A stretch of DNA of 64,000 nucleotides from Mytilus trossulus (taxonomy: Eukaryota), in contig NC_086376.1 of assembly GCF_036588685.1 (NCBI RefSeq), positions 83,265,014 through 83,329,013 on the forward strand. Direction: 5' to 3'. Position 1 is the first letter of the stretch. Each line of letters begins with the position of its first letter. Of this stretch, positions 31,499 to 64,000 are shown in pieces. The translations under genes were made by a program, and so were the position numbers. The notes beneath the pieces are model-generated. The model did no database searches and was not told the origin of the DNA. It was given only the letters and a program-made list of their open reading frames with translations.

Positions 31499-32015
31499 AG
31501 AATTTAAATTTGAATATCGTCGCTGTTATGCAAAAACCTCGTATCTCAATTTTTTGCGGAAATCTTTTTATCGATTATTTTGGATTAAGTATGTATGTTC
31601 CATTGTATGCGAAAATATCTGATCTTCTAACCAATCATTAATACGAATTCTGACATATGACGAAAAATTGTAGTCGGATTGGTGAGACATTATGTTGTGC
31701 GAAAATATCGTATTTCAAAAGAAAAACACTTTGCCCGGCAGCTGACATTATAACAGGAAGAGTTTAATCAATTTCGGGTTCGCAACGCTAATATATTAGC
31801 TTAAGAATAAGGAAAAGCTTTGAAAATACAATATAGTAGCAGAAAGTTTTGCTCGTCTTGGTAATTGATTGGTTAAAAGATCAGATATTTTGGCATACAA
31901 AGGAACATACATATTTAATTCTAAAAAAGCGATAAAAGATTTCAGTTTTTACTGCCTGGTGTAAAATTATCAAAACCTTAGATACGAGGTTTTTGCATAA
32001 CAGCGACGATATATT
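31499..32015. mobile_element. Foldback/MITE element with about 140-bp terminal inverted repeats (31499-31640 vs 31858-32015)
   Basis: aatatcgtcgctgttatgcaaaaacctcgtatctcaa ... ttagatacgaggtttttgcataacagcgacgatat, and tgcgaaaatatctgatcttctaaccaatca vs tgattggttaaaagatcagatattttggcata. Confidence 0.75.
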
Positions 32016-32359
32016 TCAAGTAGTGTAAAGGATTTCAATGAATTTTCTGTTCAGTACACTGGGTTATGACTGTGCAACAGGAAAAATAAAATCAAAATTA
32101 ATTCCAAGTCCATATCATAAGATTTTTTTTTTCAAAAAATGTCAAATCAGACAGTCTACAATATATATTACAATCAACTGATCATTTTATCAATTTTCCT
32201 TCAAGGTACATGCTGTAAACATGACTGTCTACATGTATGTTCACTTAACTGGAACATGCTTTGATTTTTAAATATCCCTATAAAAAGTAATGAAATAAAG
32301 TAGGCACTGTCAAAGTTCAGTACATAAAGGTTAATAAATCATTCTTCCCCGACGAGAAG

Positions 32360-32595
32360 AAATTCATGACTTCATGAACTATCATGAATGGTTCGTGAAT
32401 GTTCATGAATGGTACATGAAAATTCATAAATAATTCATAAATGAAGGTTCATGAATTTAATTCATGAACTGTTCATTAAAAGTATTTTATGAATGTTCAT
32501 GAAGTTTTGATGAATCACTAGCTGCTCATAAAAATTCATGAAATGTTCATTAACAGTATTTATGAATGTTCTTGAAGTTTTGATGAATCACTAGG
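32360..32595. repeat. Dense array of the palindromic motif (G)TTCATGAA(C), HSE-like nGAAnnTTCnnGAAn architecture, cluster 1
   Basis: About 20 occurrences of TTCATGAA/ATTCATGA in 235 bp, including a roughly 65-bp internal tandem duplication. Confidence 0.85.
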
Positions 32596-33433
32596 TGTAA
32601 CATTTATAACTTACATCACTCGTATAAATGAGTATCATAGGTACTGTTTCGACCGTTTAAAGTAGAACATTTTACCTAATTATTCGTGAAATATCATAAA
32701 TGTATGGTGTTTTTATTTTTTTATTCCTGCAAAATAAAAAAATAAAATAAGATGAAATAGAAGTTGTAGCTGTATTTTAAGATAGATATTATATACAAAA
32801 CTAAAATTTTAAAAGGAAAACGTATATTTTAATGAAAGTGAAATACATTTTCAAAATATTCTCAAACACCCATATTAAGGGGAAGTAACTCTTGTGATTT
32901 TAAATTTCTACAAACCGGCAAACCCCGCAAATCGGCTGTTTCCGTAGTCCAACGGTCGACCGATTTTGAGAAGTTCACTGAAATACCATAACAGGGACGA
33001 ATCAACTTCGGGCCGATATTATATGGGACGAGATTGACACCTTGACTTCAACGCACTTGCAAATATGACGTCATATGATTACGCTGGATAACAAAAATGG
33101 AGAATCCAAACGCAGATGTTTTCAGATAAGTATTTGATTTAACATATAATGATTATGAAATACAATTTGTTGAGGCAATATAAAACATTTAGGATTTTAA
33201 TCTGAGCAAAACATCAGAAAGTTTAGGCAGACAATAAATTAATGAAGAATGATAAATTGATATATTGTTGTCACATTCATAACAGACATATCGTAATCTG
33301 ACATGTAAATGGTACATGGGTATATATGATAATCTGATATGTAGAAATTAAATTGTGTGAATAATATTCATCGTAAATTAACTTGGTGAAACGTTAATAA
33401 TAATTTAAGTCGCCAGTTTCATCTTCAAGGGTT

Positions 33434-33438
<5 letters not shown>

Positions 33439-33468
<30 letters not shown>
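33439..33468. repeat. Homopolymer poly-G run (30 nt)
   Basis: Direct reading. It sits between the two TTCATGAA arrays. It could be genuine (G4-prone) or a two-colour-chemistry poly-G assembly artefact. Confidence 0.9.
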
Positions 33469-33469
<1 letters not shown>

Positions 33470-33811
33470 ACTAAATTTGAGTTTAACTTAAACTTCCAAT
33501 GCAATTTAAGATGCATAATGCTGTTTCTATTGAATGTATTGCTTCATACAATCATTACCTCTTGAACAATTGATTCTTTGTGGATATTTTTGTACTTTTA
33601 GGGGATTAAATATGAGCTGCCAGCAATGATATGAAACAGATTTTATGCAGACTCCATTTTAATACCTTTATTCAGCAATTATTGTTGGAAATACAGAGAC
33701 AGCAAGTTTTGAATTACAGAAAGGAAGAGAAGTTTATATATCACACATAATTTTTATATTAGTTAATCAGTTTGTGGATTTACCAGTGATAATTCCAGTG
33801 GAATCTACTGG

Positions 33812-34130
33812 AACAATTCATGAACAAGAAAGGTTCATGAACATTTAAGTGTTCATGAACTTCAATGTTCATGAACAATTTATGAACAAAGTTCAAGAAC
33901 AATTCATGAACAAGAAAGGGTTCATGATCATTGTTGTTCATGAACATTTAAATGCTCATGAACCTTTCTTGTTCATGAATTGTTCATGAACATTAAAGTT
34001 CATGAACATTACTGTCGATTTTCAGTTCATGAATTGCTCATCAAATGTTCATGAAGATATGATGAACTGTTCATGAAATATGTTCATGAACAGTTCATGA
34101 AATGTTCATGCATATTCATGAATTATTCAT
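33812..34130. repeat. Dense array of palindromic GTTCATGAAC motifs, cluster 2, containing a roughly 50-bp-arm perfect-ish hairpin (33811-33860 vs 33935-33984)
   Basis: gaacaattcatgaacaagaaaggttcatgaacatttaa.tg.tcatgaac and its reverse complement about 75 bp downstream; more than 20 TTCATGAA cores. Confidence 0.85.
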
Positions 34131-37100
34131 TATCATCTCACAGGGGTTCCATTCTGATGATTCTGAAAGTACCATCATATATCAATTAGGCAAGCTAAAT
34201 AAATAAAAGAATATAAGAGAATCCTCTACTTATTCAGATCTAAACTTTACAACCTGATATCCTTTTAATCCCAAACCAATTAATTCTGACTTATTTATTG
34301 AGTTACACCTCCATCATATAAGCTGTGAAAAATAAGGTCCTGAGAGGTCTGAATTCAGTACTAATTAACATAATGGTGTACTAATACCATAACTGTGACG
34401 CTTTGTTATAGAACTAGATGTACTGTAAAACACGAACAGTGTAAATTCTATTATAGACTTATACACCCAAAAATCTGCTTATAATCTAGACGGGGCCGTA
34501 TTATTTCATAGCAACAAAAAGATGGTCAATGATAACACTCTCTTCACAGCCATTCAGAGGATAGGACATAAAATAACTATATAAACACTTAAGAAGCAAT
34601 TTGATAAGTGACCATTAGACTGTAACATTATGTTTCATAAATGAACAAATATGCTAGAGTTGTCTTTCTTCTTAAAAAAAACTGCAGTGTCTTAGACTGG
34701 ATTCTGATTTCTAGACATGTAAAAATTGCTTTTTTAAACAAGATACAAAATAATTTCTTTAAAATGTTTGCAAAAATATACTTTTAGATAGTTTCCTGCA
34801 ACTGGATTTACCCAACTTGATAAATTCTCAACTTGTCAATCATTTTCATTGAGTATCAGAAATGTCTTCAACAAGTTCTCCTACTATGTATTTGTCTTAT
34901 ATAATTATGCTTGACTCGTATGGGTGACATATGCAGTAAATAAATAAAATATGTGCATTAAATTGTAACAAGGACATCATTTCTGGTTTACTATATCTCT
35001 GTTTGTCACTGAAGATGACAATTTTATGATAATTAAGTTTAAATTAGATTTAATGTACTTATCAAAGGAAGAATTTCAAAATACCACTTTGGATACATGA
35101 TGAAATGTTGTCTGTCCACAATATTTTCATATAAACCATACATGTAAATGACTCATGATAATTAGGCCTTATGAATAAACAATAGATTTCCTGAATTCTT
35201 AAATGCAAACAAATCTAGTTTAGTAAATTTAACAATTATCATACGCAGCAAAAAGTTGTCATTAAAGATAGATCATAATGTGTACAAGTAAACCACAAAA
35301 TTATAATCAACTGTAAAAAACAAATTAATAACAAAAGAGGACACACAGAAATGTCTTGCACAGGTAAATGAGATCTTGATTCTAACAAGTTCATGGTCAG
35401 TAATTAGAAAGTAACAGAATAAATAAGCAAAATCTTATTTACTGAATTATGAAAATGAGGTCAAGGTGAAGTTTAACCTGCTGGACAGACATTTAAACAT
35501 GTATTAAAAGGATGATTTGAAATAAATTTGATTTGTCCATGGTATGCTTTCAAAAGTAAAGGTTCACTAAAAAAATCATATCTAGTTGTGACTGATTGAG
35601 GAAAAGGAAGAGTTTTACTGTTTTATAATTTTAATAATATTCATTACACATATATGTACATGCACCAGCTCAAGTCACTTTTAAGTAGTATATCAAATTT
35701 AAAAATATCAAATTCCATTTGGCAACATATTGCACTATGCCAATATATTATATAATTAGATTAATAAGTTTTACTCATAATCAATACCACCATTTTTGAT
35801 GAAAATTCAAATTCTAGGAAAAATTACAATATAATTATCTTGAAACTAATAAACAATTGATGTACTCTTGAGCTTTATCATGCAGACAAAGGGAAGGGAG
35901 GCCGTTGTTTACAGGTTTATCCTGTTTATTCAGTCAGTCTCTTCCTGTTCAAAACATGACCATCAAGAGCATGTCTTCCTCTGATTTAAACATACTACAT
36001 ATTTAAAAACAACCAAAAAAAAATCAATCAACCAAAATTATCTAATTTCCAATACAGGTATAATTTTTTTCCAAGTAATCCACAATTTCCTTGTTTTCCT
36101 GTAATTCTCAGCCTGTTGCATTTCAATTAAGTCATGCCTGATTCTGGTTACTCATAATTACTGAACTCAAGTGTGTTTCCAAGGACTGATTTGAACCAAG
36201 CAACAATGATAAAATTGAATCATAAATTTATGAAACGCTTTGCTTTAAACATACTAGACAAAGGAATATTTAAATTCGTAAGAGACGCAAACATTAACCC
36301 CACACCTTGACAGATGCCACAAAAATGTGGCGCAATCTTTGTTATAGTAATTTACATTTTCACTGTTACTAATCTAGTGTAGGAGTAAAAATCGATAATC
36401 ACATAACATCCTGCCAACAGATGAATATTTCCCTTTAAATGTAATTTTTGTGTCATAATTTAATTTAGATTTTAAATTTTGGAATAAAAGAACAAGCATG
36501 AGGAAGTTTAAGCAAGGACAAATAAACATAAACTTGATTTAATACTTAGAAATGTACTTAGCCCACCCATTACATGTACGCAGAATTGTTTGTCTAGTAA
36601 CTGGGACTGTTGACTTCATGACAAACATTTAAATCTTCATATTTCACAACACATCATCAACAAGTCAAATAACTAGGTCAAAACTTCATAATCCAATATG
36701 TTATGAAATGATAGAAACGAAATTTTACTTTCAAATAAGTATTTCTAACTTTTAACATCACATATGTTGTGTCAGATACAATTTTGATATTATTGATTGG
36801 AACTATTGTTTTCGAATAATCTTTATCATTAGATCAGCTAGGTCAAGTGTTTGAATAAATATATATATTTCACATAATGTGTGAATGGCATATGTCTAAT
36901 CGCTGTTATTGTTTAGCTTCAAAAGAGAAATCAATTTCAAATATATAGATTTCTTTTCATAACATGTGTGTGGATATTTGTTGACATTGGCAAATATAAC
37001 TATGTACAGACTGAAACATATTTGTTTATCTTCAAGGTCAAGAAGAGGGATTTGCCAGCTTCATGTATATATACAATAGAATTCACTGTCTGACCAAAAA

Positions 37101-40100
37101 AACATAAAGGAAGTTGGGGACTTAATATTTTTTTCTTTCTACCACAAGTTTTAAGTCAGGATTTCCTGAAGATAACTTTGCTACCCACTATATCATGGAT
37201 TGGTTTTAGCCTTCATTTGTTTTAAAATTGTGACCAAAACATATTATTTGCATCAATTTTTGCACAGGGATTACTTGAAAGTCTTTTTAGAATCAACACC
37301 AATATAACATCAGCTATCAATATAACACTTTAGTTTGTCACAATATTCAAAGGTAATTGATGAAAGTTATATAGAGGAATGAAGGAATAATGAATTATAC
37401 TTGGTCTAAGTGAAAATTGTCAAAACTATAGTTTGTTGCTTATTAACAGTACAGGCCCTCATACAATTTGAACAATTGCTAGACTGGCACAAATTTTGCA
37501 GACTAAATCTTGTAACATGTTTTACTGTTGATCTACTGAGACATATGCTGTACATGTTCTAGCCACCTTTAGTAAACTGTTATATAAATAAATTCTTACA
37601 CCATATATAGATATAAATTGACCTAAAACTCATTAACTCACACCTGAGAAACAGAAGTCTTGACCTTAATATGTCAGTTGAAAGAAATGAACTACATATA
37701 TCTTCTAACCTAATAGGGTACAGGTGTCAGACCTTAACATTCTAACATCTGTCTTCTAGTTTTACTTACCTAAGCAAAACATTTTAAGACACTAGGTAAG
37801 AAATTTTGAGGGAGTCAAACTGAAGTGTTCAAACCTGATCATCTTTTATCAACTTCAAAGTAACAGGTAGCAAAAAGCCTATACTGTATACAGCCTTTTT
37901 GAGTTAGGGTGTGCTTTTGAAATTTATGTTTTGACAATGCAAGTTTAACTGCTGAGAGACATTGATATGAATACAAGGTAATGTGGGGTTATGTCAATGG
38001 GACAACGACCTGAATACTTCCAAAAAAAATCAATCGAAATATGGCTCTATACCCTAAAGTGGGTCTCATTCGGGGTCTAAGTCAGATTATTGTGTCGTGA
38101 AAACGGGAAATGTAGTCTGGCGGGACACAGGAAATGGAAAAAAATAGAAATTTGCTAATGTACATAGTGTAAGCAGGATATGGGAATCTGACAAAACAGT
38201 AAGCGGGATCCAGAATCAGAACCCCATTGAGACTGACCATAAAGGTTGCATGCAAATTATAATTTATAGTTTTAGGTCTATAGGTTATTAGATTACAACT
38301 ACCAGCCTTCTCGAGCTTCATTGTAAAATTTGTCAGTCTTATAAAACAAAGACTGGAAATAGAATATATGGAAAAAGAGAAAAAAATTCCAGCTGTTGAT
38401 ATCTTATTTTTTCACACATTGCCTATGACAAACATTGAACATGGTATAAAGTTACATTACATTTAACACCAGACAGTATTTACTAACTTCAGGTGTTTTT
38501 AACCCCCTTATATATACTTAATATCATCAATTATATGTATATAAATGGATCATCTATGCCTAAATTAAGCAACAAATCAAATATTCCAATATTCATTATC
38601 TAAAATTGCTAAATTATTAATTATTATACATAAACAATATTAGCCAATATGTTAAAAGTTTACTGACTGTGAATAATGGCTTAGGTCAATAATTGGTCAT
38701 ATCCTTGGGCTCAGACCTAAAATAACTCAGTATAAACAAAGATGAAATAAATAAATATACTTTGTATATATATAACTCATATCAAAGAAAGTACAGAGGT
38801 CTTTGTTTCATCTACCATTTAAAATATGACTTGTTTGATGGATTATAAAACATACAACAGAAATATTTAACACTAAATCATGTGACTAAAATAAAGATAT
38901 AAACATTCAGAAATGTTAGTTCACAAGTATGTTCATCATGCCAGTCAACATTACACAAATAAGTATAACTTTTCTTCCTCAAAATCAAAGTTATACAATC
39001 AACAGTGCTTAATTATTTGTTGTCTTATTTCAGTTCTGAAGAAAATCTCTTGCACTTAGTTATAATAACGGATTCAACAGTAATGCATGTTGTAATATTC
39101 TTGGAAGCATATATCATTTGACTTGTATATTGTCAGTGATTTGAGGCTAGTGATAAGGATTTGACATATAAAGCATGCACTTGTACCCATTTCTGAAATT
39201 AAAGACCCTATTATGTTGTTCTCTAGATTTCTATTTGGTTTCATTTAGTTGTTGGGCTGCTGTCTATTGGACTCTTTTCAGTACTGGAGTTTTTCTTTTA
39301 AAGTAGTCAAGGTAAATAGAACTTGGTTTTTCTTGGTTATGCATGAGAGAAGAACTTCTCCTAAATATAAGAAGGCTACAACTCCTAGTAGATGGTCCAC
39401 ATGTGGCTGGTTTTATGGACCCCCTTTTTTGGAAATGATCAATGCATTTGAATGGGAGCATATAGTTGGAACTCCCCCTTTACTCTGGGTTGGGAACCCC
39501 CCATTTTTAAAATGGCTGGATCCACCCCTGACCACTACCTTTATATTCTATTTAGGACAACAAATCTGTTCCTTAAATAGATGGTGTTATGAATTATTCA
39601 ATCCAGCTTTATTTTACTACCCATACATGTATTTGCAAAGTGCACCATAAAAAAAAATTACAACTTTGTGAGCCATTTACATCAAATGCATTGAACAAGG
39701 AAAAATCAATATAGTATTCCATGATGCCAGTAAATATTTCATATCTTAATAACAGCTTTCATTCTGGATAATCTCTCTCATGTCCAGAGAGATTCTAGAT
39801 TTACATTAATTCTCCCTGTGCAAGGATTGAATAACCTCTGGTGAAAGTCATAATGTTGAACAAATACATCACATCTGCTAAGACTAATGGATTTGTACTC
39901 TTTGTTCCAAGGTCAATATAATTCCATAAACGGAACTTCTAACTTTAAGACTTGGAAACCTTACTATTTGGCACCGGGACAGGGTGTATTTATAATTTAT
40001 ATATTTTTTATTGACAACTACAGAACAAGTATGTGTGCAAGAAGATTCTAATGTTTGTGTAGATATTTCCCTTTAATAGTAGACCATAAGAGCAAAATTG

Positions 40101-53800: not shown

Positions 53801-54157
53801 TTAATAAATATTATCTGAAAAAGAAATATTTACACATAAATCTCTCTACAAAGAAAAATCGTTCAACACACTTCATTTTCTCAGATACATGTACATGCAT
53901 GTGCATGAGCATTAAAGGTAAATACAACTGACCAAAACAAATTGACCTTGGCCTCCTAATTTTACGTTGTCTAATATAATGGCCTGAGACAAGTGCTCCC
54001 AACAAATATTTCCACACCCCTGGTACTATACACTTTCATGGTGAGAACCCTGTAAACCTAAAAAAATTCATTACTCAATTGTTGATAAGATCTGAGTAAA
54101 GAAAAGACAGTCAAGATACAAATGTAGCACCAATGCCACTTAAACTATCATACTCAC

Positions 54158-55072
54158 CAACTAAAACATTGTCATGTACCACTTCAAAGGAGTATATTTT
54201 ACGATACCACGTGTGTCGCAGATCATTCATTTCAATCAGATCATTGTCCCACACAAGTTCTACACGGAACAATTCGGGCTCTGTCACTGGTTCATCAAAC
54301 TGAACAATAACTTTGTCTACAATGCCAAATCCAACTGCATCTATTGCATCTAATTTCATTTTAGGCAATGGTGGGTTAAACATCCTATCACATGCAGCTT
54401 TTAAAACACCTAGTGAAACAGTACATATTACGTGATTTGCATAGAATTTTTCACCGTTTTCACATTCAACACAACATTCATAAACATTTTTTTCTGGATC
54501 TGGAAATTGTCTATTCCATCGTATACATTTGACTGGATGATTGAGTAAAATATTTTCCTTTGGGATACTACTTTTTAGGATTTCTAAAACTGCAGTAAAA
54601 CCGGGTGGGATTGTATAATGAACACCTGGTAGTTCTTCATAACTTCCAAACTCACTCAAAGAAACCTCTGACAATGAATCACAGCCAGATATACAACACT
54701 CTAGCCTTTTTCGCTGATCAAATAACAATTCTCTAATATGACGGTCACTATTTGTATATCGTTCCAAAGTGTCTTCATATTCACGTTCCAGAAATGCCCC
54801 AACACTATCATTTTCTTCCATTGTGGGTATACCACTTTGATAAAAATCCTCTGCTTGCATAATTAGTTGCCCATAGTTCAAATTAACTTGATTGACTATT
54901 TTTTCAGTTACTTCCTCTCCGTTTTCCATTTTAAAGGAAGTTTTATTACGAAGACCTTTATTGCCATGTCTCAATTCTAGCAAATTATTGTCATCAGCAA
55001 TTTTAAAAATTGGGTTTCTTTCTATGCCATGTATCCAATTGGCCCCCATTTCTGCTTTATGGCCTTCGGCAT
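54158..55072 (-). CDS. Polyamine oxidase (SMOX/PAOX-like), coding exon 2 (915 nt; ..DAEGHKAEMGANWIHGIERNPIFK ... HVICTVSLGVLK ... WYRKIYSFEVVHDNVLV)
   Basis: ORF 54111..55049 (minus) carries PAO/SMOX hallmarks: GANWIHG, SEVSLSEFG..ELPG.HY.IP.GF, H-V-I-x-T-V-S-L-G-V-L-K and WYRKI. Acceptor tttttcag| at plus 55073-55075; donor G|GTGAGT at plus 54152-54157. Phase is consistent with exon 1 (1+2) and exon 3 (1+2). Collinear with human SMOX as I recall it. Confidence 0.85.
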
Positions 55073-63270: not shown

Positions 63271-64000
63271 TTAGTTCCGACGCAAAGACCTTATCAGTGA
63301 CTCAATATTAACGCCAAAATATGCAATCTTTAATGACTTGACAACAGTATCGTAATTATATCCCTTCTTAATAAGTCTATTCAAAGGTTTTGTAAGTTTA
63401 TGAGGTGAATACTGACACCTTTGTGCTTTATAAAGAACATTTCCATAAAAAATTGGATGTGAAATACCGGAACGTATAAGAAGTCTGCATGTTGAGCTAT
63501 ATTTACGAATGATGTCTTTATACCGATGATAAAATTTAGTAAATGTTTTGACTAGTTTGTGATATCGAAAACCCTGGTGTAATAATTTTTCAGTAATACA
63601 TACATTTCTGTCGTTAAAATCTAAAACATTGTTACATACACGAGCGAATCGTACAAGTTGAGATATATAAACACCGTAAGATGGTGACAAGGGAACGTCA
63701 CCATCTAAAAACGGATAATTAACGATAGGAAATGAAAAATCATCCCTTTTAACATAAATTTTAGTATTCAGCCTTCCGTTAGTGATATAAATATCAAGAT
63801 CGAGGAAAGGGCAGTGGTCATTGTTAGTATTAGCTTTATTTAAAGTAAGTTCACCAGGATAAATTTCACTAATATACATACTGAAGTCGTCATTATTGAG
63901 AGCCAAAATATCATCCAAATATCTAAAAGTATTATTAAATTTGTTTATCAGATGTTGTTTTGATGGGTCTTTGCTTATTTTTGTCATAAATTGTAACTCA
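63271..64000 (-). CDS. Retroelement reverse-transcriptase-like ORF (C-terminal part: motif-C FRYLDDILAL plus thumb-like FLDLDIYITNGRLNTKIYVKRDDFSFPIVNYPF..SQLVRFARVC), truncated by the window end
   Basis: ORF 63271..63987 has no stop upstream before the window edge. It has a YLDD-type RT motif C followed by a conserved thumb signature. I recall this signature from an abundant invertebrate retroelement RT family, possibly Penelope-like; the family assignment is from memory and unverified. No GIY-YIG motif is seen in the tail. Confidence 0.55.
   Translation of the reverse strand, partial: ELQFMTKISKDPSKQHLINKFNNTFRYLDDILALNNDDFSMYISEIYPGELTLNKANTNNDHCPFLDLDIYITNGRLNTKIYVKRDDFSFPIVNYPFLDGDVPLSPSYGVYISQLVRFARVCNNVLDFNDRNVCITEKLLHQGFRYHKLVKTFTKFYHRYKDIIRKYSSTCRLLIRSGISHPIFYGNVLYKAQRCQYSPHKLTKPLNRLIKKGYNYDTVVKSLKIAYFGVNIESLIRSLRRN

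Follow-up and report, generated by a model that had tools for sequence, protein, structure and literature searches.

The question raised by this locus is what two clusters of the palindromic motif TTCATGAA, set on either side of a unique stretch of DNA, represent. The window, meaning the whole 64-kb stretch that was analysed, is approximately 31% GC and contains few long open reading frames (ORFs). An earlier note on this DNA had likened the clusters to heat-shock elements (HSEs), the sites bound by trimers of heat-shock factor (HSF), and had proposed a satellite, a foldback transposon or a stress-responsive regulatory module as possible readings. Positions 32347-34146 are best read, with a probability of roughly 0.8, as a single copy of a foldback-type, non-autonomous class II transposon (cut-and-paste, with terminal inverted repeats, TIRs) from the genome of a bivalve mollusc. 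The element is an ordinary sort of genomic parasite, from an unclassified family that is assigned to no superfamily. Its eye-catching, regulatory-looking architecture is transposon anatomy, and annotation as a stress enhancer would call for binding data. The features of the element are as follows, with the strand given where one applies.

32347-34146, + strand: whole element, approximately 1.8 kb, without a long ORF; matched by a second copy (L022) whose flanks diverge past the right terminus
32347-32359, + strand: left terminus CCCCGACGAGAAG; 10 of 14 positions agree with the right terminus in reverse complement; the ends of the related loci L006, L011, L016, L023 and L034 align with it
32363-32587: left subterminal array; 19 TTCATGAA-like sites with at most one mismatch, 6 of them exact; period of 10-11 bp in the outer part
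32459-32597, + strand: two tandem 73-bp units within the left array (direct repeats D1 and D6); 32486-32524 and 32559-32597 are 95% identical
32598-33800: internal non-repetitive, non-coding region; no other copy in the window; conserved in L022
32880-33125: CpG-rich, promoter-like segment; 42.7% GC, 15 CpG in 246 bp; holds ATATGACGTCATAT (33063-33076)
33439-33468, + strand: poly-G tract whose length varies, with 30 G in the window and 6 G in the second copy (L022 1189-1194)
33802-33994: inner right array as a hairpin (inverted repeat I1); 80-nt arms, 86% complementary; motif period of 16-18 bp
34010-34033, + strand: internal terminus-like motif TACTGTCGATTTTCAGTTCATGAA, resembling the left end and aligned with the termini
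34025-34122: outer right array; 8 sites, period of 10-13 or 22 bp
34134-34146, + strand: right terminus CATCTCACAGGGG (reverse complement CCCCTGTGAGATG); similarity to L022 stops here or at most one base beyond (T at 34147)

A palindromic unit in two arrays

Across the 64-kb window there are 23 exact copies of the motif TTCATGAA, where shuffled sequences lead one to expect 4.2 +/- 2.1, and none of 100 shuffles reaches 23. Of these copies, 21 lie within 32371-32542 and 33817-34122, so the enrichment in two clusters described in the earlier note is real. The further statement that each cluster carries at least 20 copies holds only loosely, when one mismatch is allowed (19 sites in the left array and 20-21 in the right, 33817-34122); exact copies number just 6 and 15. 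The central dinucleotide of TTCnnGAA is AT at 21 of 25 sites in the element and at 296 of 310 in related loci, as opposed to only 2 of the 20 sites that the window has outside the element, and the positions flanking the motif are enriched in G and C. The AT-centre bias and the flanking enrichment show that the selected unit is a specific palindrome, GTTCATGAAC (GTTCTAGAAC is its centre-mutated form). This conserved unit is 10 bp long and is spaced mainly at 11-13 or 16-18 bp. A literature search for GTTCATGAAC returned primers only.

The second cluster folds into a hairpin larger than the arms of about 50 bp that had been proposed for it. Its arms (33802-33881 and 33915-33994) enclose a 33-nt loop, and when this inner part of the cluster is folded as DNA, the minimum free energy is -64.8 kcal/mol (z = -13.3). 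An ordinary satellite fits poorly. In place of long, homogeneous head-to-tail repetition there are arrays of 225-330 bp, with irregular spacing and mixed periods of 8-28 bp, and transposon termini stand at their edges.

The HSE-like phasing that had been claimed for both clusters is only partial. Five overlapping positions in the whole window (32392, 32397, 32443, 32491 and 32564) fit the canonical pattern of three units, GAAnnTTCnnGAA or its complement; all lie within the left array and none within the better-conserved right array. Counted as at least three contiguous inverted nGAAn units in 5-bp phase, this amounts to four sites on the left and zero on the right. It has to be considered whether the locus is an HSF-responsive module, perhaps borne by a transposon, in which HSF trimers on the nGAAn arrays would drive stress transcription from the CRE-bearing centre or from nearby genes. 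TTCATGAA is a TTCnnGAA dimer, 2-nt spacers give four canonical HSEs of three to four units in the left array (which include all five pattern matches), and clusters of HSEs bound by HSF-1 are found on Helitrons in Caenorhabditis (PMC6927752). Such a module is nevertheless very improbable, as the 15 exact motifs of the right array form zero three-unit HSEs, and the invariant AT centre with its flanking G/C is not required by an HSE. Only 2-nt spacers, and hence a period of 10, keep the HSE phase; of the 37 spacings here 6 have this period, as do 19 of the 345 in related loci (mode 11-13).

The fixed AT centre, the dominant spacings of 11-13 and 16-18 bp and the lack of HSEs in the right array thus argue against HSE architecture, or a stress-responsive module, as the organising principle of the locus. 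The HSE-like strings are better viewed as a by-product, because the selected unit is the palindrome GTTCATGAAC. A secondary role for HSF is conceivable, since transposon-borne HSE clusters exist in the Caenorhabditis Helitrons (PMC6927752).

Boundaries, copies and relatives of the element

Metagenome contigs were scanned for three closely spaced copies of GTTCATGAAC, which returned 33 loci. Among them is L022, a contig of 2,166 bp that aligns on the opposite strand to window positions 32466-34147 with 97.8% identity. Outside the poly-G tract, identity is 99.2% over 1,658 bp, with 12 substitutions and one 1-nt indel. The similarity ends at CTCACAGGGG(T), after which the window continues as TTCCATTCTG and L022 as TAAATTACTG, leading into a different repeat. 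As the flank of L022 is unrelated past the right terminus, the unit occupies at least two loci. This exact family was seen in only two copies, and their shared edge at a terminus concerns the right boundary only, as L022 ends inside the left array. The left boundary is set by the terminal consensus alone, since the left terminus departs from the right one at 4 positions out of 14 and L022 stops short of the left end. Self-comparison of the window revealed neither a second copy nor an empty-site paralogue.

Inverted repeats, imperfect at 4 of 14 positions, stand at the very tips of the element, as in a class II TIR transposon of the foldback type. The ends are capable of folding and are built from short internal repeats (19 and approximately 21 motif copies; hairpin z = -13.3; arms of 183 nt and 47 nt in relatives). 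The longest stop-to-stop ORF within the element is 61 amino acids, and the element is therefore non-autonomous. No transposase encoded by the element or by its family was found. The ORFs of the element, concatenated and used as a protein query, gave no match, so other copies are unreachable through called proteins.

One point against a transposon comes from the target site. The flanks of the element share only TT, and there is no clean target-site duplication (TSD), which is odd at just 0.8% divergence from the sister copy. An 8-bp reading of the flanks as ATCATTCT and TCCATTCT matches at 6 of 8 positions and requires one extra T at each end. A hAT element has an 8-bp TSD and 5′-YARNG termini; the termini here start with CCC(C), and an 8-bp TSD is imperfect at best. 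A Mutator-like (MULE) element has a TSD of 8-10 bp; flanks of 9 bp match here at 4 of 9 positions, with no transposase to hand.

The relatives of the element were recognised among the same 33 loci. Twelve of the 33 are rich in AT (29-37% GC), with 11-50 exact copies in dense arrays, and their internal sequences are unrelated to that of the window element. The loci L006, L011, L016, L023 and L034 share a terminal consensus, CCC(C)TGTSGAGAAT, with the first motif copy directly after it. L011 begins CCCCTGTGAAAAT, and the terminus is CCCTGTTGAGAAT in L006, CCCTGTCGAGAAT in L016 and L023, and CTCCTGCCAAAAT in L034. L016 and L023, both copies of one further family, diverge directly past CTCGACAGGG. 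The motif moves with transposon termini across unrelated internal sequences, a further point against an HSF-responsive module. In L025, arms at 1-183 and 1412-1594 are 183 nt long and 95% complementary, and in L013 arms of 47 nt (91% complementary) lie either side of an ORF. The arrays of these relatives act as genuine long inverted repeats, which is foldback-type class II anatomy. The foldback transposon named in the earlier note is thus upheld by the terminal inverted repeats, by the 99.2% copy with a different flank and by relatives that share both termini and arrays.

A separate observation concerns L023, in which positions 541-1156 hold three tandem modules of approximately 200 bp, as L016 does also. 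Each module is a motif array that ends in the terminus-like CTCACTGGGG or CTCGACAGGG. These repeats suggest that the ends of transposons are being amplified into an array that resembles a satellite.

A different arrangement would be two independent small foldback or MITE-like elements, or minisatellites, that flank unrelated single-copy DNA. This is unlikely. The second cluster is self-complementary by itself, the left-terminus-like motif at 34010-34033 could bound a 137-bp mini-element together with the right terminus, and the tandem terminal modules of L023 indicate that arrays can grow in satellite fashion. Set against these points, a single collinear block of L022, at 99.2% identity, spans the right array, the entire centre and a portion of the left array, and outward-facing termini stand at the outer edges of both clusters. 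The arrays, at no more than 330 bp and with irregular spacers, are also unlike a homogenised satellite.

Many piggyBac-like TIRs begin with CCC, and the start of the termini recalls them. TTAA, however, is present in none of the six flanks examined (window, L022, L016, L023 and L006), and piggyBac was rejected. A Helitron or Helentron, i.e., a rolling-circle element with internal tandem repeats, was rejected likewise. Such elements have 5′-TC...CTRR-3′ ends, a 3′ subterminal hairpin and TIR-less insertion at A|T or T|T, whereas the ends here are inverted repeats (CCCC.../...GGGG) at the very tips, no 5′-TC and 3′-CTRR pair with a subterminal 3′ hairpin is present, and the flanks are not A|T. 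Helentron-derived elements with satellite-like arrays are abundant in bivalve genomes (PMC7492417). As an account of this locus, either a rolling-circle or a piggyBac-like element is extremely improbable.

Other returns of the scans were set aside. The viral scan gave only L001, a viral contig of 63% GC that is unrelated by composition; its positions 1-150 hold 8 copies of GTTCATGAAC at the contig start, probably an independent protein-binding repeat array. The scan of prokaryotic genomes gave six loci with a single triple match each, which are irrelevant. BEN domains bind palindromes, and L011 contains a BEN-domain exon at 1014-1559 on the - strand (Pfam E = 1.4e-07), 580 bp from the terminal GTTCATGAAC array. 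It was set aside as the palindrome binder; it resembles the last exon of a spliced gene and could be either part of a neighbouring host gene or cargo of the element.

The surroundings of both copies contain further repeats. A hairpin or MITE-like element of approximately 500 bp lies at 31514-32012 of the window, 335 bp to the left of the transposon, with nested inverted repeats whose arms are 41 nt (93% complementary) and 72 nt (89%). In the flank of the second copy, L022 96-305 is a 71%-identical relative of window 33524-33731 in the opposite orientation, and L022 376-484 is a piece of a repeat that is also found at window 39422-39530. Judging by this flank, related elements seem to cluster. 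Elsewhere in the window, 54111-55049 (- strand) is an open exon of 312 amino acids for a flavin amine oxidase that resembles spermine oxidase (Pfam Amino_oxidase, E = 1.7e-22); its best named relatives are from the bivalves Mizuhopecten and Tegillarca (72% identity), with unnamed Logan/ENA proteins at 88-89%. These relatives mark the window as nuclear DNA from a bivalve. An ORF of 238 amino acids at 63271-63987 (- strand) contains RYLDDIL, which by eye resembles motif C of reverse transcriptases; it has no Pfam match and is probably a decayed retroelement.

The internal region and a candidate binding protein

The three features that had been described between the clusters are all present, and one of them differs between copies. 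The middle is GC-richer, with 42.7% GC and 15 CpG in 246 bp as compared with approximately 31% GC and 13 CpG per kb in the window. The CRE-type palindrome ATATGACGTCATAT lies at 33063-33076 and is unchanged in L022. This CpG-rich, CRE-bearing centre may be a relic promoter. The 30-nt G homopolymer occupies 33439-33468, but the sister copy has only 6 G. Such a difference between copies that are otherwise 99.2% identical points to a hypervariable tract or to an artefact of assembly or base-calling, and on the comparison of these two copies the G run is not a conserved feature. The internal region matched no Rfam family above threshold, its best hit being a generic miRNA hairpin (40.9 bits, where the gathering score is 67), and no tRNA was found with ARAGORN. 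BLAST detects no similarity between the internal region of the element and that of L006, where TGACGTCA and a G run are likewise present.

A lead to a binding protein comes from the ORF between the inverted arrays of L013, which encodes a protein referred to as P0120. In the word-index protein search this ORF matched only itself. PDB sequence and profile searches were negative. An exhaustive HMMER search with P0120 gave 85 other matches at E <= 0.001 (86 listed including P0120). The shared portion is a CCHH domain of approximately 120 amino acids with invariant W, C, C, W, H and H. The 86 representatives (P0120-P0205) make up an orphan CCHH family, with the pattern NTPTKR..S.VW..VKRL...THVC...CN..LKL...W.TT.A..H....H and no Pfam model. 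The AlphaFold2 model of P0120 has a pLDDT above 90 for residues 90-205, and the best structural matches of the modelled domain are BED fingers, a weak indication that it is BED-like. The mobilising partner could accordingly be sought in a BED-finger, hAT-like enzyme, which is a weak lead. The link between the window element and L013/P0120 is likewise a lead and not a demonstration, drawn from the identity of the motif and a partly similar terminal TGTGAG.

Among the longer relatives of P0120, the C-terminus of, for example, P0170 (838 amino acids) looks hAT-like by eye; neither Pfam nor sequence searches of the PDB identify these relatives as hAT, and the AlphaFold2 model of P0170 is poor (pLDDT 40.6). 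No TTCATGAA arrays occur on the contigs that code for P0120 relatives (L041-L045), and no TIRs surround the gene for the P0120 relative in L042, a 21.6-kb stretch of a 2.29-Mb chromosome record (GCA_041296205.1). Upstream of the 838-amino acid P0170 gene, L041 140-190 holds four copies of GACGTGACTT; this may be the subterminal repeat of that element itself and is unlike GTTCATGAAC. The P0120 family is a candidate orphan zinc-finger binding partner to test.

A bolder proposal is that GTTCATGAAC arrays mark an undescribed, widely distributed foldback lineage whose transposase is a divergent BED-finger (hAT-like) enzyme missed by Pfam, and that the lineage would also spread HSF platforms. Insertions could serve as such platforms because the binding sites are palindromic TTCnnGAA. 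If this were true, heat-responsive enhancers would be spread through bivalve genomes as they are by Helitrons in Caenorhabditis. The proposal as a whole is very improbable.

A putative docking array and its counterparts in known systems

The mechanism proposed for the element assigns two parts to each end. The first would be the terminal sequence of approximately 13 bp (CCC(C)TGTSGAGAAT), as the place of cleavage. The second would be the subterminal region of 240-330 bp, with approximately 20 copies of the 10-bp palindrome GTTCATGAAC, each of which would accommodate two sequence-specific DNA-binding domains from a transposase. This transposase would come in trans from an autonomous relative. 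Many sites would lead to higher local affinity and specificity, and the arrays could nucleate a multimeric synaptic complex that joins both ends; at a spacing of approximately 11 bp, adjacent sites would point to roughly one side of the helix. The unique middle, with its CpG-rich CRE stretch and variable G run, would be passenger or remnant sequence. By analogy with known elements, the repeated palindrome is most likely a putative docking site of the mobilising enzyme and not a heat-shock switch.

For transposon specialists, the locus provides a family definition made up of the terminal consensus, the 10-bp palindrome of the subterminal arrays and a set of example loci. A perfectly palindromic site present approximately 20 times per end would suit the study of how ends are read by multimeric transposases. 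For the annotation of bivalve genomes, it draws attention to a family of repeats that may escape generic libraries. Of modest interest to transposon biology are the perfect palindrome of the subterminal site and the orphan family of BED-like proteins.

Four groups of known elements bear comparison. The Helitrons of Caenorhabditis likewise carry dense clusters that match the HSF consensus within a transposon (PMC6927752). Their HSEs are contiguous and overlapping and have HSF-1 ChIP support, whereas the present element is of the TIR type and only a minority of its sites are HSE-phased.

Galileo (P superfamily) and the Drosophila elements Foldback and Tetris share with the present element long, internally repetitive ends and a majority of non-coding copies (PMC3688188, PMC4079207). 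In these elements, transposase sites are repeated within the ends and terminal modules tend to amplify in tandem, which may be compared with L023. The THAP domain of Galileo binds repeats inside its long TIRs (PMC3688188). The sequences are unrelated, however, the repeat units there measure tens to hundreds of bp, and TSDs of 7-10 bp are documented there.

A similar layout is that of Muta1 and other type 2 foldback MULEs (Aedes aegypti), in which a short terminal motif is followed by an array of 10-12-bp repeats with short linkers (PMC5499845). In Muta1, a "type 2 foldback" in its authors' classification, the terminal motif measures 10 bp and is joined by nine 12-bp subterminal repeats that raise transposase binding and excision and are needed for cleavage (PMC5499845). 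Its group includes non-autonomous derivatives with unequal numbers of repeats at the two ends, as is the case here (PMC5499845). The terminal motifs differ (GGGTCTACCC as against CCC(C)TGTSGAGAAT in the window element), and unlike in Muta1 the repeat unit of the present element is a perfect palindrome and no MULE transposase was found. A TSD of 8-9 bp is a feature of the Muta1 system, while the flanks here share TT.

Hermes, of the hAT superfamily, also has many short sites at both ends (PMC10368747; PDB 8EB5), 17 and 14 there as compared with 19 and approximately 21 here. Its BED domains bind these subterminal sites, which are asymmetric between the ends, and do so cooperatively on a quasi-palindrome (PMC10368747). 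The site there is a 4-bp AAGT in an AT-rich context and that of the present element is a 10-bp palindrome. Asymmetric ends and palindromic pairs of half-sites are nonetheless common to both, such pairs being bound cooperatively by two zinc-finger domains in Hermes. As an indirect and statistically weak parallel, L013, with the same GTTCATGAAC arrays, encodes a CCHH domain that is structurally nearest to BED fingers. It is by the same logic as in Muta1, Galileo and Hermes that we infer binding of GTTCATGAAC by a transposase.
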